DNA of 64,000 nucleotides, taken from IMG/VR virus record IMGVR_UViG_3300045988_164457, positions 32,001 through 96,000 of that record. One strand, written 5' to 3'. Of the stretch, positions 1 through 58,237 are shown piece by piece. A model generated the notes under the pieces. That model was not told the DNA's origin and made no database searches. It saw only the letters and a list, made by a program, of their open reading frames with translations. A program made the position numbers and the translations under genes. The stretch is from a virus. The number at the start of each line of letters is the position of its first letter. Within the stretch, counting starts at the first letter, position 1.

Positions 1-1
1 A

Positions 2-1804
2 AATAAGGAAGACCCTGCTACTGTAAAACAATTCAAGAAAGATAATAAAGAAAAGAAACATCTTCTTGAAATGGAACAGATTACAGAGCAAGAGTATTAT
101 GATTGGCTTGACAGTAAAAGCCATCGTGTTTATGGTAATCTTGCTGATTATCAAGATGAGCTTTGGAAGCACGAAGAAGAGGTTTATAACTGGAGACAGG
201 AACAAGAACAAAAGCTCTTCGACAAGAAAATTGACAACCTTGAAAAGCTGGCTGACAAGGCACTTGATAATTACAAGGACGGAGACGGTAACGAGCTTAC
301 AGTTACAGCAAGTTTTGATTATGCACGTGAACAGATAAACAAGGCTATTACCGAAACTCAGGCAAGAATTGACGGTATCAGAAACGGTACTATAAGTGGT
401 GACACTGACGATATAGAGGCACTTATAGATGACCTTGACAGTCTTTATGACAAGTTTATTGATATCAATAAGAAGGAAATCGAATCAGAAAAGGATTATA
501 TCAGTGAACTCAAAGACGATTATTCTGATATGATGGATGAGCGTATTGATAAGGTTGATGAGCTTTCTGATAAGATTGAAAAGAGCTATGACAAGCAAAT
601 AGATGCTATTGACAAACAAATAGATGCTCTTGAAAAAGTCAAGGACACTGAGGATAGAATCAAGAAAATCAAGGACGCTCAACTTGCTGTTAAGGAAAAG
701 GAGCAAGCTCTTGACGAAGCTAAACGTGAAGATGCTAAGAACAATTACGTTTACTTTGACGGAACTGGAATGTCTGTACAGACTTCTGATGAAAATCAGA
801 AAAAGGCACAGGAGGAGCTTGATGAAAGTAAGAAAGACCTTGAAGAAGCTTATCGTGATGAACAAATCAGTGTACTTAAAGACCAAAAGGATATCCTTGA
901 GGAACAGAAAGACACTGCTAAAGATTATTACGATAACGTAAAGGACAATCTTGAAAAACAGAAAACACAGGGTGAAAAGACCTATGAAGCTGTTGAGAAG
1001 ATTTATGAGCAGCTTGGCGGTGACAAGAAACAGACTTCTTCCAACGCCGAACTTGTTAAAAAGCTTTCTAAGTCAGGTGATATATCTAAGGCAATGTCTG
1101 AATTGTCTGATACTGAACGTCAGAAAGCTATTGATACAGGCGTTGTCAAGATACAGCCTAACGGTGATTATACTTTTGATTATTCTGCCTTTGAAAAGTA
1201 TTCAAGTACGGTAGATGACAATACACTTGCTACACAGGATTTAACTTCTATTCTTAAAGACATAGTTACTCAGACTAATACTGATAATAAGGATAAGACT
1301 GATAATTCTATGGTTGCAGGTGGCTTTAATCTTGTTGCTGACCCTAAGACAGGCAAACTTACTAAGAAACAAGTTATGGTCAATGGTGAAGTTGTTGAGG
1401 GATTAGGTCACAAGGTCTATGCTACTTCTAAGGAAGAGTGGCAAGGACATAATAACAGTGAAAGGACAAGCAAGGGAAGCTTTGCTGGTTATGATACGTT
1501 TATTGACTTTATGAGGGCTGTTAGTGCTGGAAAGGTGGATATTAGTCCTCTTACTAATGCGTTCAATAGTGACTATAATCCTATTGTTGACAGAATGAAT
1601 AAGTCTGTGAGTGATACCATTAACAATGTTTCTAACAGCAATGTTAATAATAACATCAATAACAAACCTGTTGTAAATCTTACTGTAAATGTTGAAGGCA
1701 GTGCTGATAAAAAGACTGTCGAAGCATTTAGGAATGTGGTCACTAAAGAAATTGGCACTGCTTTTGATGAATTTGGAAAAGCAGTACGTAATGCTAAAGT
1801 TTAA
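2..1804 (+). CDS. Tail tape-measure-like coiled-coil structural protein, C-terminal part (5' end outside window)
   Basis: The reading frame is open from nt 2, upstream of the listed ATG at 71. It has long D/E/K-rich coiled-coil stretches and sits directly upstream of the tail/baseplate genes. Confidence 0.45.
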   Translation, partial: NKEDPATVKQFKKDNKEKKHLLEMEQITEQEYYDWLDSKSHRVYGNLADYQDELWKHEEEVYNWRQEQEQKLFDKKIDNLEKLADKALDNYKDGDGNELTVTASFDYAREQINKAITETQARIDGIRNGTISGDTDDIEALIDDLDSLYDKFIDINKKEIESEKDYISELKDDYSDMMDERIDKVDELSDKIEKSYDKQIDAIDKQIDALEKVKDTEDRIKKIKDAQLAVKEKEQALDEAKREDAKNNYVYFDGTGMSVQTSDENQKKAQEELDESKKDLEEAYRDEQISVLKDQKDILEEQKDTAKDYYDNVKDNLEKQKTQGEKTYEAVEKIYEQLGGDKKQTSSNAELVKKLSKSGDISKAMSELSDTERQKAIDTGVVKIQPNGDYTFDYSAFEKYSSTVDDNTLATQDLTSILKDIVTQTNTDNKDKTDNSMVAGGFNLVADPKTGKLTKKQVMVNGEVVEGLGHKVYATSKEEWQGHNNSERTSKGSFAGYDTFIDFMRAVSAGKVDISPLTNAFNSDYNPIVDRMNKSVSDTINNVSNSNVNNNINNKPVVNLTVNVEGSADKKTVEAFRNVVTKEIGTAFDEFGKAVRNAKV

Positions 1805-1844
1805 ACACTTTTGATGTTTGACTTTTGTATAAAAATATAGTAAA

Positions 1845-1880
1845 ATAGAGCGTGAACCTTATCTTCACGCTCTATTGTTT
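1845..1880. terminator. Bidirectional rho-independent terminator
   Basis: Hairpin ATAGAGCGTGAA...TTCACGCTCTAT is followed by a T-run. It lies between the stop of the + ORF (1804) and the stop of the - ORF (1891). Confidence 0.6.
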
Positions 1881-1890
1881 ATTTTTATGC

Positions 1891-2319
1891 TTAAAGTGAA
1901 TAAGTTCTTATTGCAGAAACAATACTATCCGTGTACCAATTTACAGTTGTAGTTGCAACGGAGCTAACTTCTGTTGGCATATTTACATTTCCACGAGGTT
2001 TGATTGCAATGATAGGTTTTCCCATTGCTACTGCGCAATCTAATTCATACTGCATCCATTCACGATTATTATAGTACATTCCCGATATAACTAAAACACA
2101 ATTTACAGGTCTGATTTTTCTTAAAATAGCATCTTTAATTTGTGTTTTATTGGTAACGGAAGTACCATCTAAATTTATAAGAGGATTGTCTTTTGGAGCT
2201 GAATAATTATAATACTTAAAATTAGGAGCTTCTTCCAATAAATCATTTAAGTGAATGTAATCATCGCCGTATTTCCAAGCATGACTAATAAATAAATGGT
2301 ATGGCTTTAACTCTGGCAT
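1891..2319 (-). CDS. TIR-like domain protein (DUF1863/MTH538-type)
   Basis: Motifs 'YHLFISHAWKYGDDY', 'VLVISGMYYNNREWMQYELDCA' and 'GKPIIAIKP' are present. The start was set at the ATG of 'MPELKPY' (2319); the longer ORF to 2457 has a low-complexity, implausible N-terminus. Confidence 0.7.
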   Translation of the reverse strand: MPELKPYHLFISHAWKYGDDYIHLNDLLEEAPNFKYYNYSAPKDNPLINLDGTSVTNKTQIKDAILRKIRPVNCVLVISGMYYNNREWMQYELDCAVAMGKPIIAIKPRGNVNMPTEVSSVATTTVNWYTDSIVSAIRTYSL

Positions 2320-2376
2320 ATAAATTACAACCTTTCTAAAATAAAAATTTAAACAATTCCATAAGGAGGAATTATT

Positions 2377-2577
2377 TTGAATACTAATGTAAAAAAATAT
2401 CGTAAGAAGCCTGTTGTAATTGAGGCATATCAAACTGACAAGGAAATTGTTATTCACACATTAGAGGGCGATATGATAGCATCTGTTGGGGATTATATTA
2501 TCACGGGTGTGAATGGAGAACAATACCCTTGCAAACCTGATATCTTTGAAAAGACTTACGAATCTGTAGAAGATTGA
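2377..2577 (+). CDS. Small phage protein, PGDYG-like
   Basis: TTG start lies 6 nt after AAGGAGGA. The motif '[26 protein letters not shown]' resembles small PGDYG-domain phage proteins. The gene sits between the TIR and SLATT genes on the opposite strand. Confidence 0.55.
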
Positions 2578-3053
2578 CTTACTTTGCTTTGCCATGTTGA
2601 AAATTCTTTAGTAAAATACTGCTCACAATTACTAACTAAGGTATCAAATGCCACGTCTGGGTTGTTAGAATTGTAGGGCGGTATTTTATTTATAAATTTT
2701 GAAGCTTCACTTTTCAGCATCTCGCAATTCATGCGATATTGAACCCATAAGTCTTTAAAGGTGTTTATATTTATTATGTAGGTGATTACCGAGACGGCTG
2801 AACCAGCAATGGCAATTAATATATTAACTAATGGTTTTTCTTCAAAAAGTGTTAATATTGGAATTGAAGAAGATATTATAACAGATATGACAGATAAAAC
2901 TTTGTAGTATTTTTGATTATGTTTTGCTTTTTTATCATACCATTGTATTTGGTCAAGCAATCTGTTCTTTAAATATCTTTGTTGTTTTTCAGTGTATTCA
3001 CTGTAATCTATCGGAAGGTCTATTATGTAGTTTTCATTTGATTTTTTACACAT
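2556..3053 (-). CDS. SLATT / DUF4231-like two-TM effector protein
   Basis: '[17 protein letters not shown]' is followed by two hydrophobic helices ([19 protein letters not shown] and [20 protein letters not shown]) and then '[18 protein letters not shown]'. The start was set at the 2nd ATG (3053), which follows a TGGAG RBS. Confidence 0.7.
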
Positions 3054-3098
3054 TTTATGCTCCATTTTTCACTGTAACGAGTTGTATTGTATAAGTAT

Positions 3099-3127
3099 AT
3101 TGTATGCTATATTAAGAATAATTTCAA
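3099..3127 (-). promoter_or_regulatory. Sigma-A type promoter for the SLATT gene
   Basis: On the minus strand: TTGAAA, 17 nt, TACAAT, about 45 nt upstream of the start codon. Confidence 0.45.
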
Positions 3128-3252
3128 GTGAAATTTTGTATATTATGGCAAATTCCATAATATTAACAAGTTTTAACAAAATATATTGTTGATAAGCGAC
3201 AAAAGCATATAGTTGAAATATAGACTATTAAGAATATAAGGAAAGGATTGTT

Positions 3253-3726
3253 ATGGATTACAAAAGACAAATTTTAAATTGTGCCAACGAACTTATACAT
3301 AAAAACAATTCACAAATCAATAAATCTAATTTTGATAAAACCTATATTGGTAAAGTAATAGGTTCAATAAAAGATGATAATGAAAAAGTAGTACGTTGGC
3401 AGATATTCGCAAATGCTTCTACTTTTAATGTGCTTGCTGAAAATTGTAATGTTATTGCAGTAGGTCAGCGTGTGAGAATGTTTATACCCAGTAATCAGAG
3501 AGATATGGTTTATGCAGAGGTTATAACCGACTATGAGTTTAACCACCCATCGAAAGCGGTATATGATGCCGAAAAATGCACTGTAACGGAGACTTGGCTG
3601 CTTTCCGACAAGACGGAAGAGACAAGGGTATTTACTCTGACTGTCAAGGACAAGGGCGGTTCATCGGAAGAAGTCACAGCGATCACTTTCCCCGATGGCA
3701 GTGTTATGAGTTTGGAGGGATTTTGA
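3253..3726 (+). CDS. Hypothetical tail-module protein
   Basis: AAGGAAAGGA RBS is present and the stop overlaps the next start (TGATG). No motif was recognised. Confidence 0.6.
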   Translation: MDYKRQILNCANELIHKNNSQINKSNFDKTYIGKVIGSIKDDNEKVVRWQIFANASTFNVLAENCNVIAVGQRVRMFIPSNQRDMVYAEVITDYEFNHPSKAVYDAEKCTVTETWLLSDKTEETRVFTLTVKDKGGSSEEVTAITFPDGSVMSLEGF

Positions 3727-5609
3727 TGGACGTTAAAGAGACTTTGACAAGATGGGCAAGAGCTTACATGGAGCCGAGTTTGTTTTATGTGCCTGCGAAG
3801 AAGAATGACGAATATTACACAGTAACAATAATTCCCCGCTTCAATTATTTTGATGTTTACGAAGAAAAGATTAAAAAACGAGCAACTTTCCTCGAAGTGT
3901 ATAAAGAAACTACCACCAAGAATTTACAGCAATATTATGGTGGTATAGGATATGGTTTAAACGAAAGCGACTATTATATAGCTTTTGATGAAAACGGAAA
4001 CATAGCAGATAGCACTGCTTGGAAAGATTATTTTTCAGCAGCAAAATTGTCATACAAAGAAGAAAAAGATTTTTATACCATTGAAACATATAATATTGAT
4101 GATTCGTTGAAAATGTTAAACTCCCCAGCTCAAAACATGCGAGTTATAAAGAATATATCCAGTTTAAAAGAAGCTGAAGATATTTTTAATGCTGGAGATA
4201 CAGGCTATGGTACCAATGATTACGGAACGCATTTTGGTAAAAACTATAATTATTATTCGCAGACTATTTTATTTATTTTATCTTCAGGTGAAATATATGC
4301 GTGGATAGATACTTTACCAGCAACAGCGGTAGATACTTCACGAACATATGAAAGAAAAGAAGTTGGAAAATATAATTACGACACTAACAAATACATTTTT
4401 AACGATAAAGATTTTTATCAAAAATATATCATGGTAGGATTTAAATATTCTTTAGCTGATTATCAAAAATATTCTTCTGGTATAGTTAATAATTATACAA
4501 AATATCCTGGAAACTGCGAATATCATTCATTTTTACGTCTAAAAAAGGGTAAATACAAAATTTTGCAAGCCCTTTCATGTAGAGGTTGCCCTGTTATTCG
4601 ATCGCAAGAAATTACAGTAGATAAAAATATGATTCTATACTGTGATGTGGTTTTAGATGGAGTAATTTTGAGGACAAATGTAAAATATTCATCTATACCA
4701 TATCATTTACTATATAATCATCCAGACAGTAGCTGGAGAGATAAATGGGAAATTAGCTATGGCACATATGGCTCATTCGTAACTGAAACTAATACTTATA
4801 GACTATCTGATTATAAGCATTTAATTAAACAAACACTTGCTGAATGGAGTGGAGACGGTAGCAATATTCCAGCAACAGACTGTGAATATACCAATTACTA
4901 CACTGGAAACTCAATCATGTTTACATATAAAAGTCCAACTTGGAAACCAACTGAAATTACGTCTGTCATGACTGATAATATTGCATATAAACGATTTTTA
5001 ACTAATGAGGAATTATCTAAATTAACAAATTATACGTCTCATGGCGTACAAATGAGCAGTAGCTTAAAAGGTGTGTCTTTTCAAGATACCGCTATAGTAC
5101 CCACTTTTTACTTAAATGCTTCTCAAAATGAAGATTATACATATACGCCTCCTACATGGGAAGAAATTGAAGGAGCAATCGAAAGTTTGAGTATTGTCGA
5201 ATGGTTTACACCGATAGAAATAGACAGCGATGGTAGGAAAATTTATCCAAAGAAAGAAATAAAAAAAGGACAGAGTATTTGGAGTATTGAACCCGCTCAA
5301 TTAAGAGAGCTATCTGGGTATAATATGGAGATTGGAGATTTTCTTTCAGATAAAGTATATGCTTTTACCGATTCAATCGCAAATAGAGTAATCGAATACC
5401 AAAAATCAGACGACGCAGACATTGATAAAATTCGTGCTTATGGGAATCGTCAAATATGTTATTTTAACACAGCCAAAGAAAGCTTTTATAAAAATTATCT
5501 TACAATAGTATCTGCTGAAATAAACGTATTGGATAGTTGGACTGAAGAAAAACATGAAGAAGCGTTTGACTTCGTAGCGCAGAAACTATATGAAGAACAA
5601 CTTAAATAA
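3726..5609 (+). CDS. Hypothetical large structural (tail/baseplate) protein
   Basis: The start was set at 'MDVKETL', coupled to the upstream stop. The listed ORF start at 3576 would overlap the previous gene by 150 nt. Confidence 0.6.
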   Translation: MDVKETLTRWARAYMEPSLFYVPAKKNDEYYTVTIIPRFNYFDVYEEKIKKRATFLEVYKETTTKNLQQYYGGIGYGLNESDYYIAFDENGNIADSTAWKDYFSAAKLSYKEEKDFYTIETYNIDDSLKMLNSPAQNMRVIKNISSLKEAEDIFNAGDTGYGTNDYGTHFGKNYNYYSQTILFILSSGEIYAWIDTLPATAVDTSRTYERKEVGKYNYDTNKYIFNDKDFYQKYIMVGFKYSLADYQKYSSGIVNNYTKYPGNCEYHSFLRLKKGKYKILQALSCRGCPVIRSQEITVDKNMILYCDVVLDGVILRTNVKYSSIPYHLLYNHPDSSWRDKWEISYGTYGSFVTETNTYRLSDYKHLIKQTLAEWSGDGSNIPATDCEYTNYYTGNSIMFTYKSPTWKPTEITSVMTDNIAYKRFLTNEELSKLTNYTSHGVQMSSSLKGVSFQDTAIVPTFYLNASQNEDYTYTPPTWEEIEGAIESLSIVEWFTPIEIDSDGRKIYPKKEIKKGQSIWSIEPAQLRELSGYNMEIGDFLSDKVYAFTDSIANRVIEYQKSDDADIDKIRAYGNRQICYFNTAKESFYKNYLTIVSAEINVLDSWTEEKHEEAFDFVAQKLYEEQLK

Positions 5610-5626
5610 AGGACGGTGAATAAAAA

Positions 5627-6157
5627 ATGAAATTTAATGGGATTGAAATTTGGGACGATACTGGTCTCTGCTTTTACACAGATGTTGAAATCAGTGAAGA
5701 TAATACTCATAACAGGGCAGCTGATGTTAAAGTCTCAAAGAATAACAAATTTCCTTATGTTATCCGAGATGGCGAAGCATCTTACTGGACTGGTACAATA
5801 AACGGATTATGGCTTGATAATTCAGAGGGAGCTTGTAAAGAAGATTTTAATCTTGATACATCTACAGCTTGGATAGTTGCTCTTGCAGAATGGTTACATA
5901 ATGGGAAGCCTAAGAAGTTAAAACTTTCTGAGGATTGGATAATGACTGTTGAAATCCAGTCTGAAGTACAATTAAATTGTGAAACCTCGGTAGATGTGGC
6001 TTATAATAACAAATTGTCTTGTAGTTGGGTTCAGACAGAAGAGCGTTATACATCAGATAATATAAAACCTTTACACTGTCCTAAATGCAATACTACTGTT
6101 GTACCCACTGCGGTATATTGTCAGAAATGTGGCACAAAGTTGGTGAATAGTGTATGA
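5627..6157 (+). CDS. Tail protein with C-terminal zinc ribbon (weakly distal-tail-protein-like N-terminus)
   Basis: C-terminus carries 'HCPKCNTTVVPTAVYCQKCGTKL' (CxxC...CxxC). The gene is positioned in the tail module. Confidence 0.5.
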   Translation: MKFNGIEIWDDTGLCFYTDVEISEDNTHNRAADVKVSKNNKFPYVIRDGEASYWTGTINGLWLDNSEGACKEDFNLDTSTAWIVALAEWLHNGKPKKLKLSEDWIMTVEIQSEVQLNCETSVDVAYNNKLSCSWVQTEERYTSDNIKPLHCPKCNTTVVPTAVYCQKCGTKLVNSV

Positions 6158-7902
6158 GTGTTGTAGAAAATTTTAATTTACACTATGATATTGCCCAACC
6201 AGTCAAAGAAAACTATTTCAATCCCAAAGAATATAATTCCAATGTGATAACCCACATTATATTTAGGGCGTATCAATATAGTTCTGATATTGTAAATAGT
6301 GCAAAATATGAGGACTTCTCCCCTAACGTTGTGGATTGGTCTTATTCTGCAAGTGTAGATAATGAATCACGTCAAAGTGCAAATGTGACACTTCATGTTC
6401 CCAAAGACAGTAAAATGTGGTTCATGCGAAGAGAGCATTTACAATATGCAGGTTATGATGATGAGTTAGGTTATTTTATCAACGTAGGTTGGAATCCTGT
6501 AATGTACCGCTTGATGTGTGATTTTGAATTACCTGACGGCACTAAGAACAGGGTAGATTTTGGTTTCTTTATTCCTACAGATGATAAATATGACTATGAT
6601 GCAACTACAAGTACATTTACAATGTCTTTAATTGGCTGTTCTGGAAGCTTTAAGTCCGAATATGGTGGCAGTCTTGTTACTTCGAGAATAGGATATCTTG
6701 AAACAGATAAAGAGGGAAATCAAAGAGAAGTAGGATTCCCTTTAGGTATTCACATTGCAAATGATACACCTATTACATCTGATTTTATACGTCAGTTTGT
6801 TGAAAAGAATAATACGTTTTTTAGACAGAACAATTCGGAAGTTCCCGTTAAAAACATTTACATAGATGGCTTAGATTTTTACGATACGGTAAAGTATTAT
6901 GAATTTGAAGAGGGCAGTTCTGTCAGTGACATTTTAAATAGTATTCTTGAAGATAGTATGCAGAATTACACATACTGGATAGACGAAAAGGATAATCTAA
7001 GAATACAAAAGAAGTCTCCCCTGCTATATGGGGATTTGCTTATGCACTACAGGGATTATAGCAGATTGGTTATTAGTGAGGGGGCAAGCTATACTGATAG
7101 TGACACTATAAGCTATGCAGAAGTCTATGGTAAAGGCGGTAATTATTATGGATATTGTGATTGGGCTATGTATAACTTTGATGTTATCAGAAGCAAAGTA
7201 TTTAATTGTTCTGAGCTTGACACTGATGAAAAATGCAGAAATAGAGCAAGGTGGGAATGTTACAAAGGTCTATACGGACATGAGACCTTTGACATAACTC
7301 TCGTGGGTATTTACATTGCTCAGTTTCAATATCCCTCTATGGTTGTTGGCAGAAGCATTGAGTACACGACTATGAATGGTGATACCAATGTTTATACTAT
7401 TAAAAGCATAGGTTATTCAAATCACGAATGGACTTTGGGATTATCTATTTATAGACCTTATTATACTGATGAAAAGACGGATTTATCCTCTGAGACAAGA
7501 AACAAGTATATGCTTGAAAAACCAGTTATATTCAAACATGAAATTGACGGTAATAAAATTAAGTTATATGTAAAATCCAAGGATATAGGAATATCTCTTG
7601 TAAAGTTATATATGAGAGCTAATTTTATTGGAGAAAGCGTTGATACCGATGGAACAGCTAATCTTGAGTGGCTTGATGAAGATGCTTACAAAGTTATAAC
7701 TTATACTATTCCAGAAGATAATCAGACTTATTTATTTAGTGTACAACTATACAATCCTCAATATGAAATGTCTTTATTGAGCAACACTTATGTTGTAGAT
7801 GTTGGAACAGTTGATGATAAATATTATAAGACTAATGATGGTAAGTATATTGAAGTTATTAAAAATCACAAGACCGAATTGTTAGAAAGGGCGGTGGAAT
7901 AA
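6154..7902 (+). CDS. Baseplate/tail-tip structural protein
   Basis: 582-aa ORF that is translationally coupled at both ends (ATGA overlaps). No specific motif was recognised. Confidence 0.55.
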   Translation: MSVVENFNLHYDIAQPVKENYFNPKEYNSNVITHIIFRAYQYSSDIVNSAKYEDFSPNVVDWSYSASVDNESRQSANVTLHVPKDSKMWFMRREHLQYAGYDDELGYFINVGWNPVMYRLMCDFELPDGTKNRVDFGFFIPTDDKYDYDATTSTFTMSLIGCSGSFKSEYGGSLVTSRIGYLETDKEGNQREVGFPLGIHIANDTPITSDFIRQFVEKNNTFFRQNNSEVPVKNIYIDGLDFYDTVKYYEFEEGSSVSDILNSILEDSMQNYTYWIDEKDNLRIQKKSPLLYGDLLMHYRDYSRLVISEGASYTDSDTISYAEVYGKGGNYYGYCDWAMYNFDVIRSKVFNCSELDTDEKCRNRARWECYKGLYGHETFDITLVGIYIAQFQYPSMVVGRSIEYTTMNGDTNVYTIKSIGYSNHEWTLGLSIYRPYYTDEKTDLSSETRNKYMLEKPVIFKHEIDGNKIKLYVKSKDIGISLVKLYMRANFIGESVDTDGTANLEWLDEDAYKVITYTIPEDNQTYLFSVQLYNPQYEMSLLSNTYVVDVGTVDDKYYKTNDGKYIEVIKNHKTELLERAVE

Positions 7903-9191
7903 TGGCATATATTTACGATTTAGACCCTATTACAAGTTTAAATGATGCAGATGTGTTTATTCTGAATACATCTAATCACGTTGATAAAAAAATCAGTTGG
8001 CAAGTGCTGTCTAACCAAATGTTGGACAAGGTACATACCCACACAAATATGCAAATTCTTGATAAATTCGGTACGAATAGCGAAGGAAAATTAACATGGG
8101 AAGACACGGTAGTGGGCAGCGATTATACCCTCCCGGCAGCGACTACTTCCGCTCTGGGTGGCGTTAAGCCCGATGGTAATACAATAACCATCGATGAAGA
8201 TGGTACTATCCACGGAGCAACAACTTACACACTTCCAACAGCAAGCACCATAGTTCTGGGTGGTGTTAAAGTCGATGGTACAACTATTACTATTGACAGC
8301 AACGGCGTTATAAAGGGCAGTGAAGCGCAGCCTTATACTCTGCCCATAGCTACCACTACGATTTTGGGCGGTGTCAAGCCAGACGGTGAGACTATTAAGG
8401 TCAGCCCCGAGGGAGTAATTACCTGTATTAACGATAGTGCTATCCCAAGCTGGGTTACAAATACAGCATATATTGTTGATAATTTGGTTGTTTATGGTAC
8501 AACCATTTATCAATGTACTGAGGCTCACACATCAGGGACTGAGTTTAACACGACTTATTGGACTGCTTTGACAGGACAGCAGGGCGAAAAGGGTGACAAG
8601 GGTGCTGATGGTGTCTCCCCTACTGCAAAAGTCACACAGACTGAGCTTGGAGCAACAATATCTGTTACAGACAGTTCGGGTACTACAACGGCGAATATAT
8701 CTAATGGTACATCGGCTATGCTGTCGGTATCACAGACTGAAACAGGTTGTACGGTAACTGCGACTGATAGCTCGGGAACAACTACTGCTACTGTCTCTAA
8801 CGGTACAAATGGTACTAATGGAGATGATGGAAAGTCGGCGTATGCTATAGCAGTCGAAGAAGGTTTTAGCGGTGATGAGGCTGCATGGCTCAGGAGCCTG
8901 AAAGGTATAACAACCGTAACGTCAAGCGCTGTAAATTTGACAGGAACGTTAACAGCTGATGGCTGGTCTGACACTGCTCCTTATATTCAGACTGTCGCCG
9001 TAACCGGTTTAGCCGAGGACGGATATCCTATTCTGGATTTAATTACATCAGCAGATACTACAACTGGAATTAACGAAAATAAGCAGTGGGCGTACATCAC
9101 AAAGGCGACAACTGCCGAAAATACACTGACAGTAAAATGCTATGAGAAAAAGCCTACTATTGCTTTGAATTTCGTCATAAAGGTGGTGTAA
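7902..9191 (+). CDS. Tail fibre protein with internal repeats
   Basis: Three 'YTLPxATTxxLGGVKxDGxTIxI' repeats are present. There is also a short collagen-like stretch 'GQQGEKGDKGADG' and two 'TDSSGTTTAxxSNGT' repeats. Confidence 0.7.
   Translation: MAYIYDLDPITSLNDADVFILNTSNHVDKKISWQVLSNQMLDKVHTHTNMQILDKFGTNSEGKLTWEDTVVGSDYTLPAATTSALGGVKPDGNTITIDEDGTIHGATTYTLPTASTIVLGGVKVDGTTITIDSNGVIKGSEAQPYTLPIATTTILGGVKPDGETIKVSPEGVITCINDSAIPSWVTNTAYIVDNLVVYGTTIYQCTEAHTSGTEFNTTYWTALTGQQGEKGDKGADGVSPTAKVTQTELGATISVTDSSGTTTANISNGTSAMLSVSQTETGCTVTATDSSGTTTATVSNGTNGTNGDDGKSAYAIAVEEGFSGDEAAWLRSLKGITTVTSSAVNLTGTLTADGWSDTAPYIQTVAVTGLAEDGYPILDLITSADTTTGINENKQWAYITKATTAENTLTVKCYEKKPTIALNFVIKVV
8124..8426 (+). repeat. 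Three tandem ~34-aa coding repeats inside the tail fibre gene
   Basis: YTLPAATTSALGGVKPDGNTITI / YTLPTASTIVLGGVKVDGTTITI / YTLPIATTTILGGVKPDGETIKV. Confidence 0.8.
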
Positions 9192-10748: not shown

Positions 10749-11099
10749 ATGAAAAAGCGTAAGATGGAATTTTCTAAGAAATGGCTTATAGGCTGTATTT
10801 GCGTTAGCCTATTCTTCACGTTGGCTTCATACGTTCTGGCGTGGTTCGACAAGAACGCCGTAGAAACACTTAGCATAACGATCATTGAGACACTGTGGGG
10901 AACTTCCGCAGTGTCCTTTGTATTTTATGCGGGGCTTAACGGCGTGAGAGCCTATACCGGCAGCAAGTGGGGTATTCCAACAGATGAGATGGACAAGGCA
11001 ATTACAGATGAAGAGCCGGAAGAGATAAACTATTCAAACCGATATGACACCGATGATATGTCGGTGGAAGATATTTTAGACGAATATGACAGGCGGTGA
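10749..11099 (+). CDS. Two-TM membrane protein (holin/antiholin candidate)
   Basis: The start was set at 'MKKRKMEF'. Two hydrophobic helices are followed by an acidic C-terminus. The gene lies immediately upstream of the endolysin. Confidence 0.5.
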   Translation: MKKRKMEFSKKWLIGCICVSLFFTLASYVLAWFDKNAVETLSITIIETLWGTSAVSFVFYAGLNGVRAYTGSKWGIPTDEMDKAITDEEPEEINYSNRYDTDDMSVEDILDEYDRR

Positions 11100-11103
11100 T
11101 TAC

Positions 11104-12321
11104 ATGGAATTGATTGCAAAAGGTGCAGATATCTCTAAACACAATGGAAACATTGACTGGAACAGAGTTAAGAAGACCGAGGTTAACTTTGTGATTATCA
11201 GAGCTGGATTTGGCTTTAACACGGTTGATCCGATGTTTAAGACCTACATTGAAAATGCTATAAAATGCGGACTTGATATCGGAATATACTGGTTTAGCTA
11301 TGCTGGAAGTGTGGCTGATGCGAAAAAGGAAGCAGAGTTCTGCCTCAAGACGATATCGCCCTACAGAAAGAGCATAAATTATCCTGTGTTTTTCGACTGG
11401 GAGAACGGCAGCTACAACTACGTAAAGCGAACATACGGTATAACGCCTACCAAAAAGCTTGTGTCTGATATGGCTGTAGAATTTATGGACACTATCGGAC
11501 AGGCTGGGTACAAGGTTGGCAACTACAACAGTGTAAGCTACCTGAATACATTTTTCGATGACAGAGTTAAAGAGAACTATGATACTTGGGTAGCTCACGT
11601 AAGAGACGCCAATGGAAATCCTCTGGAAAAGACAAGCTACAAAGGCAAGTATGTTATTCATCAGTATTCATGGGTCGGACGACCGAGTGGTTTCTCCTCT
11701 AAGACCGATATGGATTACTGTTATAAGGATTATACCGGTAAGGGTACAACTACAAAAACTGAGACGGTTAAATCGTCAAAGTATGTTGTTCCCGATAATA
11801 TCACATTTAAAGTACCAACATCTAAGAATGTGATTACGACCTATCCGTTGAAGACTTATGGCGAAACCAAGATTTCTGACCATTTCAAGGTCAAGGAGTT
11901 TACCAGTAAATTCGGCAATAAGGTCTATTCGGATAAAGTCAAGATACATAACAAACTGATTGAAATTCTGGAGGCTCTGTATGCCAAACTGGACTGCTCG
12001 ATGATTATAGTCAACAGTGGTTACAGGACTGCGGAGCACGACAAAGCGGTCGGTGGCAATGGGTCGGGATATCATGTTCTCGGAAGAGCGGCGGATATTA
12101 TCTGCTATGACAAAAACAAAAAGATAATCGACGCTAAGACCGTATGCGTAACGCTGGAAGAGATGGGTGGAATATACGGTATAGGGTATATCAACAACAG
12201 AGCTGTCCATGTGGATACGAGACCCAAGGCTTCTCAGTGGTATGGCGACGAAACCAAACGTGGAGCGCCCAGTATCACGAAGCTTGGATACAAGTCTTTC
12301 CGTGATTATTTCAAGATGTAA
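11104..12321 (+). CDS. Bifunctional endolysin: GH25 muramidase plus peptidase M15-like domain
   Basis: N-terminus 'GADISKHNGNIDWNRVKKTEVNFVIIRAGFG' is GH25-like. C-terminus 'ISDHFKVKEF...NSGYRTAEHDKAVGG..SGYHVLGRAADI...VHVDTR' is M15/YcbK-like. Confidence 0.85.
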   Translation: MELIAKGADISKHNGNIDWNRVKKTEVNFVIIRAGFGFNTVDPMFKTYIENAIKCGLDIGIYWFSYAGSVADAKKEAEFCLKTISPYRKSINYPVFFDWENGSYNYVKRTYGITPTKKLVSDMAVEFMDTIGQAGYKVGNYNSVSYLNTFFDDRVKENYDTWVAHVRDANGNPLEKTSYKGKYVIHQYSWVGRPSGFSSKTDMDYCYKDYTGKGTTTKTETVKSSKYVVPDNITFKVPTSKNVITTYPLKTYGETKISDHFKVKEFTSKFGNKVYSDKVKIHNKLIEILEALYAKLDCSMIIVNSGYRTAEHDKAVGGNGSGYHVLGRAADIICYDKNKKIIDAKTVCVTLEEMGGIYGIGYINNRAVHVDTRPKASQWYGDETKRGAPSITKLGYKSFRDYFKM

Positions 12322-13285: not shown

Positions 13286-14599
13286 ATGTATATGGGACTT
13301 ATAAACCAAAAAATAGAAGTTGTGCTATCAGGGAAAAATATTCCATACTATGAAAATTTGGGTTATGAAATTCCGAGAGTATATAAAAAATATGGTTTAA
13401 GTACACCTCAAAGGACAAAAATAATTGTAGATGTTCTCGATTTATCTAAAGGGTCTGACGTAAAGGTTGATGTTCAATGTGATTGTTGTGGAGAAATACA
13501 TAAAGTTTCATATTATAATTATAATAAATATCGAAATGAGGATAAATATTATTGCAGAAAATGTAATAAATTAGGCGATAGAAATCCAAATTGGAATTAT
13601 AATAAAACAAATACTGAACGAATTTTACAAAGGAATTATGTTGATTATGATATATTTATTCATAAAGTTTTAGCCAGAGATAATTATACTTGTGTGATTA
13701 CTGGTAAAACAAACAAGGAAGCCAAGTTGGTGGTTCACCATCTTAATAGTTATGATTGGGATTTTGATGGTCGCATAGATGTTTGTAACGGGATTACTAT
13801 TACAGAAGAATTACACAAAGCATTTCATTCACAATATGGCTACGGACAAAACACTCGACAACAATTTGTTGAATTTACAGGTAAAGTTGATTTAATACTA
13901 AAAAACTATAATGGAGAAGTACCAACGGCAAGATGGGCGTATTGTATTACAGATAATGAAATAATTCAAAATGTAAAAAGGTATGCAGAAAAAAATCATA
14001 TAGCAGATACTGGTATTTATAATTGTTGTAATGGCAAGCTCTATACATATCATAATAAAATTTATATATGGTATGATAAATATTTATGTATGTCTAAAAA
14101 TGATTTAAATATTTATGTTGACATTTGTAAAAATTCACGTTCAAAAAAAGTGATTTGTACAACTACTAATAAAGTTTTTAATAGTGTAATTGAAGCAGCT
14201 GCTTTTTATAACATTCGTGAAAGTGGTATAAGTGCTTGTTGTAGGGGCGAATATAAACATAGCGGAAATTTATCAGATGATACTCCATTATGTTGGATGT
14301 ATTTATCTGACTATGTGAAAATACCCGAAAAAGGAATAAATTTGCAAACACAAGAAACATCTAAATTTTGCGGGAAAAGACAAGTAATGTGTATTACAAC
14401 CGGGAAATTGTTTAAATCTATAACAGAAGCAACAAATTATTATAAAATACCTGCAACTGGTGTAAGTTGTTGTTGTCGTGGTATTCAAAAGACCGCTGGA
14501 AAACTCCCCAACGGTAAACCTTTGAAATGGATATATTATAACGAATTTCTTAAACTTTCAAAGGAAGAACAAAATAAACTTTTAGCTAATATTTTATAG
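13286..14599 (+). CDS. Free-standing HNH homing endonuclease with repeated DNA-binding modules
   Basis: HNH core 'VVHHLNSYDWDFDGRIDVCNGITITEELHKAFH'. Three C-terminal repeats of the type 'CTTTNKVFNSVIEAAAFYNIRESGISACCRG'. An alternative start lies at 13292. Confidence 0.8.
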   Translation: MYMGLINQKIEVVLSGKNIPYYENLGYEIPRVYKKYGLSTPQRTKIIVDVLDLSKGSDVKVDVQCDCCGEIHKVSYYNYNKYRNEDKYYCRKCNKLGDRNPNWNYNKTNTERILQRNYVDYDIFIHKVLARDNYTCVITGKTNKEAKLVVHHLNSYDWDFDGRIDVCNGITITEELHKAFHSQYGYGQNTRQQFVEFTGKVDLILKNYNGEVPTARWAYCITDNEIIQNVKRYAEKNHIADTGIYNCCNGKLYTYHNKIYIWYDKYLCMSKNDLNIYVDICKNSRSKKVICTTTNKVFNSVIEAAAFYNIRESGISACCRGEYKHSGNLSDDTPLCWMYLSDYVKIPEKGINLQTQETSKFCGKRQVMCITTGKLFKSITEATNYYKIPATGVSCCCRGIQKTAGKLPNGKPLKWIYYNEFLKLSKEEQNKLLANIL

Positions 14600-20080: not shown

Positions 20081-21247
20081 ATGAAAGGTAGCGTAAGAAA
20101 AAAAGGAGCTACTTGGTCTTTCCGTCTTGATCTGGGCAAACAAGAGAATGGAAAACGTAAACAAATTGAACGTAGTGGTTTTGCTACTGAAAAAGAAGCT
20201 CAAGCTATGTTAGCCAAGTATATAGACGAGTATAATAACAATGGTGAGATTGTCGAGAACAAAAAGATAACTCTTAATGAGGTTTATCAGGAATTTATCG
20301 ATAATGAAGCTAATACCACCCGTAAGCATTCAACCGTTACAAGATATAATTCTTTATATAGAAATCATATATGTAACGAAATAGGTTACAACTATATTGG
20401 TAATTTTTCGGCACAAAAATTACAAGAATATATTAATAGTAAAAGAAGCGAAAATCTGAGTGACGAATACATTAGAAGTATTTACAATTTTTTACTTGTA
20501 TTATTTAGGTATGCTGTTAAAAGAAAGTACATCAGAACCAATCCTACTATCGGAGTTGTCCCACCAGCAAGTTATCGTGCATACGGTGAAATACAAACTT
20601 ACACTAAAAAAGAATTAGAGTTAATGGAACAAAGATGTGCTACAACAAATTTAACTCCAGCCTTTAAAATAGGAATTAACCTTGGTCTTAGAGTTAGTGA
20701 ATGTTTTGGATTAAGATTTTCTGATATTGATTGGAATAAAAAGACTATACGAATAAACAAGCAATTATATTTTCAAGATAAACAATGGTCTTTTATACCA
20801 CCCAAAACAGTAAGTAGTGTAAGAACTATAAAAATGGGTGATGAATTTACCAATTACCTCAAAGAGCTACAAGCACAGCATGAAAAAAATAAACAAGAAT
20901 ACGGCGATGGATATGCTATAAATTTTGTTACCGATAGAAGAAATGACAAAACGCAAAGAATTATCGTTGATGACTTTATAAATGTTAAGCCAAACGGAGA
21001 AATGCTTACTCCAAATAGCATTAAGTTTATGAGACGCATATTTAAAGACGACCTCAATATAGACTTCAAGTATCATAATCTTAGACACACTCATACCACT
21101 ATGTTGGCTGAATCGGGTGTAAATCCTAAGTACGTACAGAAGCGCTTAGGGCATAGTAAATTAGAAACCACTCTTAGATATTACACCCATATCACTGATA
21201 AAATGGATGAAGAAGTTGCAAATATTATGGATAATATTCTAAAATAA
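20081..21247 (+). CDS. int: Tyrosine integrase with N-terminal arm-binding (AP2-like) domain
   Basis: N-terminus 'KKGATWSFRLDLGKQENGKRKQIERSGFATEKEAQ'. Catalytic motifs 'GLRVSE', 'HNLRHTHTT', 'LGHSKLETTLRYYTH'. Confidence 0.9.
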   Translation: MKGSVRKKGATWSFRLDLGKQENGKRKQIERSGFATEKEAQAMLAKYIDEYNNNGEIVENKKITLNEVYQEFIDNEANTTRKHSTVTRYNSLYRNHICNEIGYNYIGNFSAQKLQEYINSKRSENLSDEYIRSIYNFLLVLFRYAVKRKYIRTNPTIGVVPPASYRAYGEIQTYTKKELELMEQRCATTNLTPAFKIGINLGLRVSECFGLRFSDIDWNKKTIRINKQLYFQDKQWSFIPPKTVSSVRTIKMGDEFTNYLKELQAQHEKNKQEYGDGYAINFVTDRRNDKTQRIIVDDFINVKPNGEMLTPNSIKFMRRIFKDDLNIDFKYHNLRHTHTTMLAESGVNPKYVQKRLGHSKLETTLRYYTHITDKMDEEVANIMDNILK

Positions 21248-24207: not shown

Positions 24208-25470
24208 TTATTCTCCCATACCGCTGCTGGTATTTTCCCATTTACGCATACAATACTCTTTCTTACGAGCATTCGTCCATGTGTTAATGGGCGTATAAAA
24301 ACCAACTACTCTCGTATATTCTGTTGCAATAGGCTTACCACAAACAGGGCAAGTTGTTCCATAAAAAGCGTGATTATCTTCGCAGGCTTGAATTTTAGTA
24401 TTAAATGCAAAATAGGTAACACCTGCATCAGCTATGTAACAAGTCATTTTATAAGCTTTATCAAAGCTATCAAAAGGACTGTCTATATTTGCGTGAAGAA
24501 TTGAACCACCATTACAGAACCTATCAAACATTGCCTGAATACGAATACGTTCTTTCAATGTAGTTTTAATTCCCAGAGGAATAAACTGATTACCATAAAG
24601 AGGAAGGTTGTAAATATTTGCTTCGGGGTAGAAAAATTTATCCTTATTCATAAGTTTCGATGCTGCACTTTCACCCGGTATCTGTTCAGTATTTATCATA
24701 TAATCACAATGATTGTCAGCGATGAATTTATCAGCAACTTCTCTCATTGTATCGAATATCTGTTTGCCAAAAGTTGAAGCCTTATCAGTATAATATACAT
24801 TTCCAAACTCATCTGTGGTAGTACAGCCAAACTTTTTCATTGTTTCATATATACCAATAAATCCAATCGTATTGTACAAGTGTTCAAAATCAACAAGCTG
24901 GTAAGAGAAATTCGGAAGCAGACCTTTTTCAACATCTCTTCTGATGATATTTCTAACAATATCCAATGCTCGAATATTTGATAATGTTCTAACTTTGAGT
25001 TCTTCAAGATATTCTTCCTTGGTGTTTGTATCAAGTGCCAGACGAGCAAGATTAATTGTTGATACCTTAACAGAACCAACCTTTAAAGCTGTACCACCCA
25101 CTGAATTAAAATAGCCAAGGTCACGAATATCAGATTTAAGTCTACAGCAATTAGAAAGACTTGAAACATTATCGTCAATAAAGAGGTTGCTATCTGACCA
25201 TTTCATATTGTGCTTAATTGCCCACTTGGCAAAATTCTCATCTTCAAATTGACCATTCTTACGAAGAAGTGAGATTGTGCTTACCGGAAATGTAAACATA
25301 TTTTCAGAACGTATGTCAGACATAACTTCCATATAAAGTTTTTGAAAATCAATAATTTCATCTTCAAAATCAATCATATATGTACCATCCGGGAAAGTGC
25401 TTCCTCCAAAAAGTGCTTCAAAATACGGTCTATCAAATACGGAGGTATTGGTAAATGCGGATTGCTGACC
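24208..25470 (-). CDS. nrdD: Class III (anaerobic) ribonucleotide reductase NrdD, exon 2
   Basis: The frame is open upstream of the listed Met back to about 25473, reading 'GQQSAFTNTSVFDRPYFEALFGG'. The C-terminus has the Zn-ribbon 'CPVCGKP' and the glycyl-radical region 'TRVVGFYTP'. The 5' boundary is approximate. Confidence 0.85.
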   Translation of the reverse strand, partial: GQQSAFTNTSVFDRPYFEALFGGSTFPDGTYMIDFEDEIIDFQKLYMEVMSDIRSENMFTFPVSTISLLRKNGQFEDENFAKWAIKHNMKWSDSNLFIDDNVSSLSNCCRLKSDIRDLGYFNSVGGTALKVGSVKVSTINLARLALDTNTKEEYLEELKVRTLSNIRALDIVRNIIRRDVEKGLLPNFSYQLVDFEHLYNTIGFIGIYETMKKFGCTTTDEFGNVYYTDKASTFGKQIFDTMREVADKFIADNHCDYMINTEQIPGESAASKLMNKDKFFYPEANIYNLPLYGNQFIPLGIKTTLKERIRIQAMFDRFCNGGSILHANIDSPFDSFDKAYKMTCYIADAGVTYFAFNTKIQACEDNHAFYGTTCPVCGKPIATEYTRVVGFYTPINTWTNARKKEYCMRKWENTSSGMGE

Positions 25471-31882: not shown

Positions 31883-32641
31883 TTATGTATTCTCAATTCT
31901 CTTTTTAGCTATCTCAAAATATGTATCATCAAGTTCTATACCAATAAACTTACGATTAAGGTTCTTACAAGCCACACCTGTGCTACCACTACCCATACAA
32001 TTATCAAGTACAACTTCACCTTCAAGTGTATAGGTCTTAATGAGATATTCAAGCAACTCAACAGGTTTTTGAGTTGGATGTATTTGATTTTGTCTTCTCC
32101 ATTTCTGTTGAAAATAAATTACTGTTTCAGGATATCGTTCTCCTTTATTAAAGGTTTCACTATCACTAACTACACCCAGTTTATGATTATTTGGTTTACT
32201 ACCATCATTAGCTTTTCTATGACGATAATATGGTGTACCTTCAATCATAATAGGATAATATGCTGTTTTTTTGCCGTTTTTAGAAAAAACAGAAATTGTT
32301 TCGTGCTTCTGTTGCGGTCTATATTTACTTGTAAAAGCACTTCCACATTTAGATTTATGCCATATCCAATCATATTTCCAACCTTTAAGATTACTCAGTC
32401 TTAACTTGCTACTAAACGGCTCATTCCCGAATAAACAGATAGCTCTATTGTCTTTAATAATACGATTATACTGTTCCCACAAAAGCTCAAAAGGAATTAC
32501 AGTATCCCACTTACAAGCAGTAGTACCATAAGGCAAGTCACACAATATCATATCTATCGACTTATCAGGTATATCTTTCATAAGTTCAAGACAATCGCCA
32601 CACCAAAGTTCTATATCATTCAAATTAACACTTCCTTTCAA
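31883..32641 (-). CDS. DNA methyltransferase (N6_N4_Mtase family, beta-class order)
   Basis: Motif IV 'ILCDLPYG' is N-terminal. SAM motif 'VVLDNCMGSGSTGVA' is C-terminal. Confidence 0.85.
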   Translation of the reverse strand: MKGSVNLNDIELWCGDCLELMKDIPDKSIDMILCDLPYGTTACKWDTVIPFELLWEQYNRIIKDNRAICLFGNEPFSSKLRLSNLKGWKYDWIWHKSKCGSAFTSKYRPQQKHETISVFSKNGKKTAYYPIMIEGTPYYRHRKANDGSKPNNHKLGVVSDSETFNKGERYPETVIYFQQKWRRQNQIHPTQKPVELLEYLIKTYTLEGEVVLDNCMGSGSTGVACKNLNRKFIGIELDDTYFEIAKKRIENT

Positions 32642-58163: not shown

Positions 58164-58237
58164 TGGTACACCATATCGGTTCTGCCCCGATGTTTAACGA
58201 TTAAAAGTCGTTTGTTCTACTATTGAACTAATGGTGC
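58164..58237 (-). tRNA. tRNA-Lys (anticodon UUU) with non-canonical D- and T-loops
   Basis: Hand-folded as GCACCAT-TA-GTTC-AATAGTA-GAAC-A-AACGA-CTTTTAA-TCGTT-AAAC-ATCGG-GGCAGAA-CCGAT-ATGGTGT-A-CCA. The T-loop lacks TTC and the D-loop lacks GG. Confidence 0.6.

Follow-up and report, generated by a model that had tools for sequence, protein, structure and literature searches.

Type VII Thoeris systems are operons in which a TIR protein, ThsB, is paired with a SLATT transmembrane (TM) effector, ThsH, and the signal between them is canonical cyclic ADP-ribose (cADPR) (Yirmiya et al., December 2025, bioRxiv 10.64898/2025.12.03.692087). Three of the six type VII operons tested in that study protected against phages, and all three SLATT-associated TIRs analysed make canonical cADPR upon infection. 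Added cADPR, and not 2'- or 3'cADPR, was lethal with both type VII systems tested, from an Alteromonadales scaffold and from B. licheniformis; in the model given for ThsH, an oligomer spans the membrane and has positively charged inter-protomer pockets. The type is defined by its effector, and the validated TIRs come from three different TIR clusters (bioRxiv 10.64898/2025.12.03.692087). Another system, Shaseng (a 'CRISIS' system), consists of a SLATT protein with one or two TIR proteins and defends against phages (2024, bioRxiv 10.1101/2024.12.27.630466), and TIR–SLATT neighbourhoods in Firmicute phages have been proposed to limit superinfection (Iyer, Burroughs, Anantharaman and Aravind 2022, Viruses, PMC9503650). 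Here we analyse a 64,000-nucleotide stretch of viral DNA (IMG/VR record IMGVR_UViG_3300045988_164457, positions 32,001 to 96,000; hereafter the window), in which a cassette at 1805–3252 carries a TIR–SLATT gene pair and, between the two genes on the opposite strand, a small PGDYG-like gene.

We consider it quite probable that this is a phage-borne type VII Thoeris cassette, carried as a ~1.45-kb moron in the structural region of a ~110–135 kb, integrase-encoding phage of gut Firmicutes; that it acts in defence in this phage is deduced from homology. A preliminary description of the same DNA had left undecided whether this exact architecture had been characterised. The two-gene pair already had been, as type VII Thoeris and as Shaseng, and its presence in phages is known as well, so that the locus mainly adds a phage-borne gut-Firmicute member. 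Its value lies in the third gene. We did not find the three-gene, antisense-embedded form described, and it is the dominant form in viral contigs, which makes it a concrete, testable lead on a large phage protein family that lacks an assigned function.

A TIR–SLATT cassette inserted in a phage structural region

The window derives from a large phage, not from a bacterial chromosome. The cassette is laid out as follows.

1805..3252: whole inserted cassette, ~1.45 kb, between a 577-aa upstream gene (stop at 1804) and a 157-aa downstream gene (start at 3253)
1844..1876: terminator hairpin with a 13-bp stem, after the upstream late gene and just beyond the TIR stop codon (terminator scan)
1891..2319, minus strand: thsB, a ThsB-type TIR protein of 142 aa (Pfam, PADLOC, alignment)
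2313-2342, plus strand: candidate promoter, weak, with 9/12 consensus matches
2320..2376: divergent spacer of 57 bp with two ribosome-binding sites, one for thsB (minus strand) and one for the small gene (AAGGAGGA, plus strand) (sequence)
2377..2577, plus strand: small PGDYG-like gene of 66 aa, antisense-embedded between thsH and thsB
2556..3053, minus strand: thsH, a SLATT_1/DUF4231 two-TM protein of 165 aa
3099..3127, minus strand: sigma-70-like promoter TTGAAA-17-TACAAT upstream of thsH (promoter scan, 10/12 matches; consensus match only)

The preliminary description had reported two minus-strand genes breaking a plus-strand tail operon, and all three open reading frames (ORFs) of the cassette were found at the coordinates that it gave. 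It had also called the segment a moron, and sibling phages supply the empty site: in L175 (107 kb) and L177 (122 kb), the same flanking genes, 85–87% identical to those of the window at the amino-acid level, lie 61 bp apart with no cassette between them. It follows that the 1.45-kb segment, small plus-strand gene included, was truly inserted here, and that this gene does not belong to the resident tail operon. The locus thus shows the features of a phage moron, namely presence/absence polymorphism between collinear phages, promoter- and terminator-like sites, opposite orientation and a GC dip (0.25–0.32 across the insert versus ~0.36–0.38 upstream). Other IMG/VR contigs, of 75–135 kb, match window positions 1-3800 at 92–97% nucleotide identity and carry the cassette in the same place.

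The TTGAAA-17-TACAAT promoter assigned earlier to the SLATT gene was located at 3127-3099 on the minus strand and likely drives a single thsH–thsB transcript. The terminator, described earlier as bidirectional, is present as a plus-strand hairpin; its bidirectionality has partial support only, as the terminator scan scored the plus strand alone and the minus-strand T-run is weaker.

The protein encoded by thsB is a TIR of the ThsB family. It matches Pfam ThsB_TIR PF08937 (formerly DUF1863) with E 6.3e-13 and 49.4 bits (cutoff 21.2) and the PADLOC ThsB1/ThsB models with E 1e-11, and the TIR-family profile finds PDB entry 1eiw (MTH538) with E 3.3e-11, in agreement with the earlier DUF1863/MTH538 call. 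The motifs FISHAW, VLVISG...REWMQYELD and GKPIIAIKP are all present. In an alignment of 23 homologues, F10–W15 (FISHAW) and E92 (WMQYELD) are invariant, and E92, the candidate catalytic Glu, lines up with the Glu conserved in B. cereus ThsB and in the validated type VII ThsB of Pseudohongiella. The start was fixed at 2319 because all 23 aligned homologues begin MP.LK, and a longer ORF from GTG 2457 was dropped for the same reason. The thsB product is predicted to be both the infection sensor and the synthase of an NAD+-derived signal.

The SLATT assignment of 2556–3053 comes from profile searches: NCBIfam SLATT_1 matches with E 3.3e-28 and 98.3 bits (cutoff 41), Pfam DUF4231 with E 1.1e-18 and Pfam SLATT_1 with E 7.7e-12. 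Hydrophobic helices span residues ~50–71 and ~74–98, and the AlphaFold2 (AF2) model consists of four long helices (pLDDT 78). Foldseek found no match to this model in the PDB at E <= 0.001, and a sequence search of the PDB with the SLATT profile returned nothing significant. We place the start at 3053 rather than 3065 because homologues begin MCK, which led us to drop the longer ORF from ATG 3065; a GGAG 8 nt upstream of 3053 also supports this start. None of the three cassette proteins matches SLOG, SIR2 or Macro in Pfam, NCBIfam or PADLOC, so the earlier remark that the effector has no visible SLOG or macro sensor stands, and the logic that it implied, a TIR signal-maker acting on a SLATT membrane effector without either domain, has since been demonstrated for type VII Thoeris (bioRxiv 10.64898/2025.12.03.692087). 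The thsH product is accordingly listed here as a predicted signal-activated, membrane-disrupting effector.

Two checks proposed in the preliminary description came out in favour of the pair: profile searches of Pfam, NCBIfam and PADLOC gave significant matches for both proteins, and the two families co-occur. The TIR family is broad (more than 500 protein clusters; 323 species-level genomes of bacteria and some archaea). Among the best 80 species-level genome loci carrying this TIR, a SLATT homologue adjoins it on the same strand in 47; among 80 IMG/VR viral contigs picked through the TIR alone, SLATT adjoins it in 73. In many of the remaining genome loci the neighbour is instead a protein of ~160 aa that contains two or three TM segments. 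This is the case for nine loci from Dehalococcoidia and other non-Firmicutes (L014, L015, L021, L026, L028, L030, L031, L033 and L045), where the partner has two to three hydrophobic segments and gives no match to the SLATT profile; it probably belongs to the '3TM' class of putative effectors listed by Yirmiya et al. (Table S1).

Both features of type VII Thoeris that can be read from sequence are found in the cassette: a ThsB TIR with the conserved Glu, and an adjacent SLATT effector in the same operon. The window TIR and the validated, cADPR-producing Pseudohongiella ThsB are members of one sequence family and align over the full length with 28% identity, Glu included (E 4e-23). As in the described systems, a single-domain TIR lies beside a two-TM SLATT effector with no SLOG or Macro sensor; the likeness of the window SLATT protein to ThsH consists in shared Pfam/NCBIfam models. 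The effectors of type I and type II Thoeris (SIR2-SLOG ThsA and Macro-TM) have no counterpart here. Judged by these sequence features, the pair is a new, diverged, phage-borne member of type VII. It differs from the validated members, which are two-gene operons of Proteobacteria and Bacillus, in being carried by a phage, in its gene order (thsH, then thsB) and in the third, antisense PGDYG-like gene between them; the term 'PGDYG' does not occur in the main text of bioRxiv 10.64898/2025.12.03.692087.

Shaseng shares with the cassette a TIR and a SLATT transmembrane effector; its defence is lost on TIR inactivation, and its authors note no SLOG/Macro sensor. Unlike the cassette, in which neither was seen, Shaseng has two TIR proteins and is regulated by CRISPR-like crlRNAs. 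The neighbourhoods of Iyer et al. are likewise phage-borne, in Firmicute phages, and combine a TIR with a two-TM SLATT partner; that survey reports occasional HTH or zincin partners and, in contrast to what we find, does not mention a PGDYG-like gene (PMC9503650). Its examples Javan281 and SN10 were not recovered when the window TIR was searched by tblastn against 50,697 cultured-phage records, in which the sole match was C. difficile phage phiCDKH01.

The antisense-embedded PGDYG-like gene

The gap between the two minus-strand genes measures 236 bp and is filled by the small gene, which overlaps the 3' end of the SLATT gene by 22 nt and begins 57 bp from the TIR start. It starts with TTG, immediately preceded by the ribosome-binding site AAGGAGGA. 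Start codon, ribosome-binding site, overlap, gap and PGDYG-like match were thus all recovered as first described for this 66-aa plus-strand gene.

The position of the gene is conserved. A tblastn search with the 66-aa protein found it at 67–87% identity in 23 of the 80 genome loci, always antisense in the SLATT–TIR gap, and 72 of the 80 TIR-selected viral contigs have all three genes in this arrangement. Two further contigs are cut or have no detectable SLATT, and only one has TIR and SLATT without the small gene. After dereplication at 90% TIR identity, the three genes are present in 33 of 40 viral loci, and the arrangement holds down to ~35% TIR identity. The geometry is constant in 39 distinct loci: the SLATT gene and the small gene overlap or touch at their stop codons, and a few tens of bp separate the start of the small gene from that of the TIR gene. 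In loci that lack the small gene (L004, L005, L047, L052 and others), thsH directly adjoins or overlaps thsB. It is missing from the proteobacterial and chromosomal type VII systems.

The insertion sites of the three-gene cassette are unrelated to one another. In the window it sits in the structural/tail region; a human-gut prophage that is very common, with its small protein on more than 1000 contigs, has it in the lysogeny module beside the integrase; and in the cultured phage phiCDKH01 it corresponds to genes _16, _15 and _14 beside the integrase, all annotated as hypothetical. In every context inspected, the embedded small gene points in the same direction as the late/lytic genes and opposite to thsH and thsB.

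In the human-gut prophage (L081–L088), the cassette next to the integrase is part of a variable island of the lysogeny module, in which neighbours differ between similar prophages. They include a CAP12-PCTIR_TIR protein, a 432-aa TPR-like protein and Abi_alpha, with SIR2_2 or KAP NTPase genes beyond the integrase, and the island looks like a prophage defence hotspot.

The small gene is a real coding gene under clear protein-level selection. Differences among embedded copies are distributed 0.20/0.15/0.55 over first, second and third codon positions, and the protein is highly conserved (mean identity 73–76%, with 21 invariant positions, many of them aromatic and basic). It diverges in step with TIR and SLATT, as shown by the correlation of pairwise distances (Mantel r 0.78–0.81; 0 of 2000 permutations as high). 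The match to Pfam PGDYG (PF14083) reaches 27.1 bits (cutoff 27.0) over just profile positions 6–35 of 102, and the protein is best described, from this match, as a short, N-terminal-domain-only PGDYG member. Its AF2 model is a small beta-barrel with a C-terminal helix (pLDDT 86.6); the closest structures in BFVD are annotated 'PGDYG protein' (E 8e-7, TM-score 0.81, 81% identity), and all BFVD neighbours are uncharacterised. A sequence search of the PDB returned nothing significant, and searches of the available literature for the PGDYG family gave plant papers or nothing, with no mention of it in a phage context.

Domain fusions connect this family to Thoeris counter-defence. C-terminal extensions occur in 71 of the top 150 family representatives, and five of these extensions match Tad2-like (Pfam PF11195, 'Thoeris anti-defense 2-like') above cutoff, with E 7e-20 to 7e-10. 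The N-terminal domains of these fusions are 84–85% identical to the small protein of the window. Three of the fusions were checked; each is a single ORF in an early or accessory part of a phage contig, and one is present on 17 contigs. It was through such fusions, with Tad2 or Acb4 as the partner, that the Sequestin sponge family was uncovered (Tal et al., bioRxiv 10.1101/2025.07.12.664507). Type VII Thoeris is inhibited by neither Tad1 nor MoTad2, and no other inhibitor of it is named (Yirmiya et al., bioRxiv 10.64898/2025.12.03.692087). The sponges Tad2 (PF11195), Sequestin (PF21825) and TadIV-1 are small proteins of phages that mostly stand alone but in some cases are fused to each other, and the PGDYG-like domain resembles them in being found fused to Tad2-like. 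On the other hand, the small protein has no sequence or profile likeness to Tad2 and no significant fold match to solved sponges, and its gene lies inside a defence operon, not in a phage anti-defence locus.

Some other members of the family are of a very different size. P0254 (3743 aa), P0259, P0260, P0266 and P0339 are very large proteins with tandem PGDYG-like repeats, up to 30 matched stretches in one, and one of them contains an annexin-like region.

Proposed mechanism and competing explanations

We infer the following course of events, its biochemical steps, the identity of the signal, the timing of expression and the role of the small protein included. thsH and thsB, transcribed leftwards from their own promoter and antisense to the late genes, would presumably be expressed in the lysogen. 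Infection by another phage would activate ThsB, which, by means of E92, would make the signal from NAD+; this would be a cyclic form of ADP-ribose, with canonical cADPR the likeliest. The signal would bind between ThsH protomers; ThsH would then oligomerise and breach the membrane, and the infection would be aborted. In the reading that we favour, the small protein would be the carrier phage's own brake, acting on the signal either as an anti-Thoeris factor, by sequestering or blocking it, or as a buffer, and antisense transcription across the thsH–thsB junction may aid it. Such a brake would let the carrier phage complete its lytic cycle unaborted. Prophage-borne abortive infection with built-in self-protection of the carrier is known from BstA and aba, the latter a stretch of DNA within bstA itself. 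We take this analogy as no more than a lead; the candidate in the cassette is a separately encoded, highly conserved protein, not a DNA element.

An antidote, self-immunity or signal-buffer role for the small protein is the most attractive hypothesis because of the Tad2-like fusions, the fusion criterion that uncovered Sequestin, and the failure of Tad1 and MoTad2 on type VII, and also because of the position of the gene in a Thoeris operon, its lytic-gene orientation, its near-universality in phage cassettes and its absence from proteobacterial chromosomes. The suggestion in the preliminary description that the gene could be a regulator or antidote gains weight from these fusions; such a role is plausible but unproven. 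The hypotheses that link the small protein functionally to the defence have, taken together, about an even chance. A wider reading, in which the small protein founds a widespread phage anti-Thoeris family, perhaps as a sponge or blocker of canonical cADPR, is possible but tentative. In that case the protein may have two uses, as an embedded self-immunity factor or signal buffer and as a free-standing or Tad2-fused counter-defence gene.

If the small protein does neutralise or tune cADPR, type VII/VIII Thoeris would thereby have a first inhibitor; in the literature searched, there is no described inhibitor of the canonical cADPR signal. A function would be assigned to a very large PGDYG-like family, which comprises 17,577 representative clusters at E <= 0.001 and occurs in 812 of 50,697 cultured phage records (~1.6%), from many hosts and with virulent phages included. 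It would also show how a phage can carry an abortive-infection system and yet survive its own lytic cycle. phiCDKH01, with the same three genes next to its integrase, is a cultured system in which the idea can be tested.

Several results weigh against the proposed role of the small protein and against the reading of the cassette that includes it. An hhalign comparison of the small-protein alignment with the Tad2-like segments gave a probability of 0.6%, that is, no relationship; the small protein has no Pfam Tad2-like match; and there are no Tad2-like ORFs beside PGDYG genes in the collected loci or in the window. Foldseek against the PDB gave no match to the small protein at E <= 0.001 (best E 0.9), and a weak match to Tad2 8wje (TMq 0.44, E 2.8) was discarded as evidence. 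Zn-ribbon and DUF551 are further fusion partners of the PGDYG-like domain, and one protein has 30 copies of it in tandem, which fits a generic binding module. SBSphiJ phages have a distant PGDYG homologue, yet they are blocked by type I Thoeris and serve as sensitive phages for types VI and X, so that general inhibition of Thoeris is not a property of the PGDYG family. The distribution of the small gene is confounded with phylogeny, all 23 carrier genome loci appearing to be Firmicutes, and the promoter and terminator calls are consensus matches only.

The alternative that survives best, though we hold it to be somewhat doubtful, is that the small gene is a passenger, a common phage accessory gene with a separate function of its own that was trapped in an ancestral Firmicute-phage cassette and has been inherited with it, with the defence being plain two-gene type VII. 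The family is huge and mostly independent of Thoeris, and validated type VII systems function as two genes. Among 80 viral loci of a second set, chosen by similarity to the small protein, 55 have the small gene without TIR or SLATT, and free copies are co-directional inside phage lytic operons. Free and embedded copies interleave in a neighbour-joining tree, in which 60-aa sequences resolve poorly and which is uninformative on monophyly. However, an antisense gene lodged exactly between genes that otherwise adjoin or overlap, as in L004, L005, L047 and L052, should be costly, and it is nevertheless kept with constant geometry beside TIRs down to ~35% identity and at unrelated insertion sites, with just 1 of 80 viral loci having TIR and SLATT alone. 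The Tad2-like fusions, which link the family to Thoeris counter-defence, also speak against a mere passenger.

A rather unlikely alternative leaves the pair working as proposed but with a signal other than canonical cADPR, such as N7-cADPR, 2'cADPR, 3'cADPR or a conjugate. The TIR clade of the window (cluster 2734565194, Table S1 of Yirmiya et al.) is common to type IV-like, type VIII and '3TM' systems, where it is paired with a caspase (type IV, N7-cADPR), a CMP-hydrolase (type VIII) or the '3TM' effector. Within this cluster, the window TIR has 43% identity with a '3TM' member and 36% each with a type IV E. coli TIR and a validated type VIII TIR, versus 28% with the validated type VII member. 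The signal could thus be another isomer, since the TIR is closer to type IV and '3TM' TIRs than to that of type VII, and type VII is itself defined by its effector, with validated TIRs from three clusters. Because the clade serves several effector types, the cADPR signal is one that we infer. On the other side, the three SLATT-associated TIRs, from different clusters, all made canonical cADPR, and both isomer-tested type VII systems, from the Alteromonadales scaffold and B. licheniformis, responded to canonical cADPR alone. Canonical cADPR is for these reasons the most likely signal, as judged from the homologous systems.

It is quite unlikely that the small protein is instead a positive or homeostatic component of the defence, either a threshold-setting signal buffer against autoimmunity or a sensing adaptor of ThsB. 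Its co-evolution with TIR and SLATT, its near-universal presence in phage-borne cassettes and its extreme conservation would fit such a role, and the Shaseng preprint speculates that a second TIR, SasB, helps the essential SasA to sense phage components (bioRxiv 10.1101/2024.12.27.630466). The small gene is, however, convergent with and antisense to the genes that it would assist, free copies in Thoeris-less phages have nothing to buffer or assist, and the chromosomal and proteobacterial type VII systems do without it.

Very improbable, finally, is a phage lysis or superinfection-timing device in which a holin-like two-TM protein is under the control of a TIR NADase: SLATT is indeed a small two-TM protein and the cassette does sit in the late region of the window, but it is antisense to the late operon with its own promoter, a separate endolysin is encoded at 11086-12321, sibling phages lack the cassette entirely, other phages carry it in the lysogeny module by the integrase, and homologous pairs have been shown to defend.

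Variation among copies and surrounding genes

Some copies of the cassette differ in their TIR gene. In the IMG/VR siblings L171, L174 and L180, SLATT is 96–99% and the small protein 98.5% identical to the window, but the TIR is just 84–85% identical, which suggests that, inside the cassette, the sensor gene has been replaced by another allele or diversifies faster. In L096/L250 (IMGVR_UViG_3300006217_000227), the TIR is in two ORFs, with SLATT and the small gene intact; it is probably split by a frameshift, and the copy may be decaying.

The left part of the window encodes tail-like proteins and the endolysin. An integrase gene at 20081-21247 is followed by a replication block with Pol III alpha, a RecD-like helicase, an ATP-dependent ligase, NrdD and a PD-(D/E)XK nuclease, and tRNAs are present. 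By megablast, window positions 1-8000 have no match among the 50,697 cultured phage records; relatives were found in IMG/VR only. Rfam searches of the whole window, with a permissive run on 1700-3400, gave tRNAs only, and nothing in the cassette scores above the gathering thresholds.

Just downstream of the cassette, the product of a 627-aa gene (3726-5609) is 31–33% identical between siblings, against 96–98% for neighbouring genes, and in some siblings conservation is limited to the first ~39 residues; it looks like a swapped module of the receptor-binding or tail-fibre type. The NrdD-like ORF (24208-25377, minus strand, 389 aa) covers only positions 173–560 of the 562-position Pfam model. 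Its N-terminal part may be missing or separately encoded, so the gene may be split, and Rfam gave no group I intron at its gathering score. At 58167-58237 (minus strand), a fourth tRNA of the tRNA cluster scores 55.4 bits in Rfam and was not reported by ARAGORN. Just after the endolysin region, a 437-aa ORF (13286-14599, plus strand) has HNH/homing-endonuclease PHROG matches.

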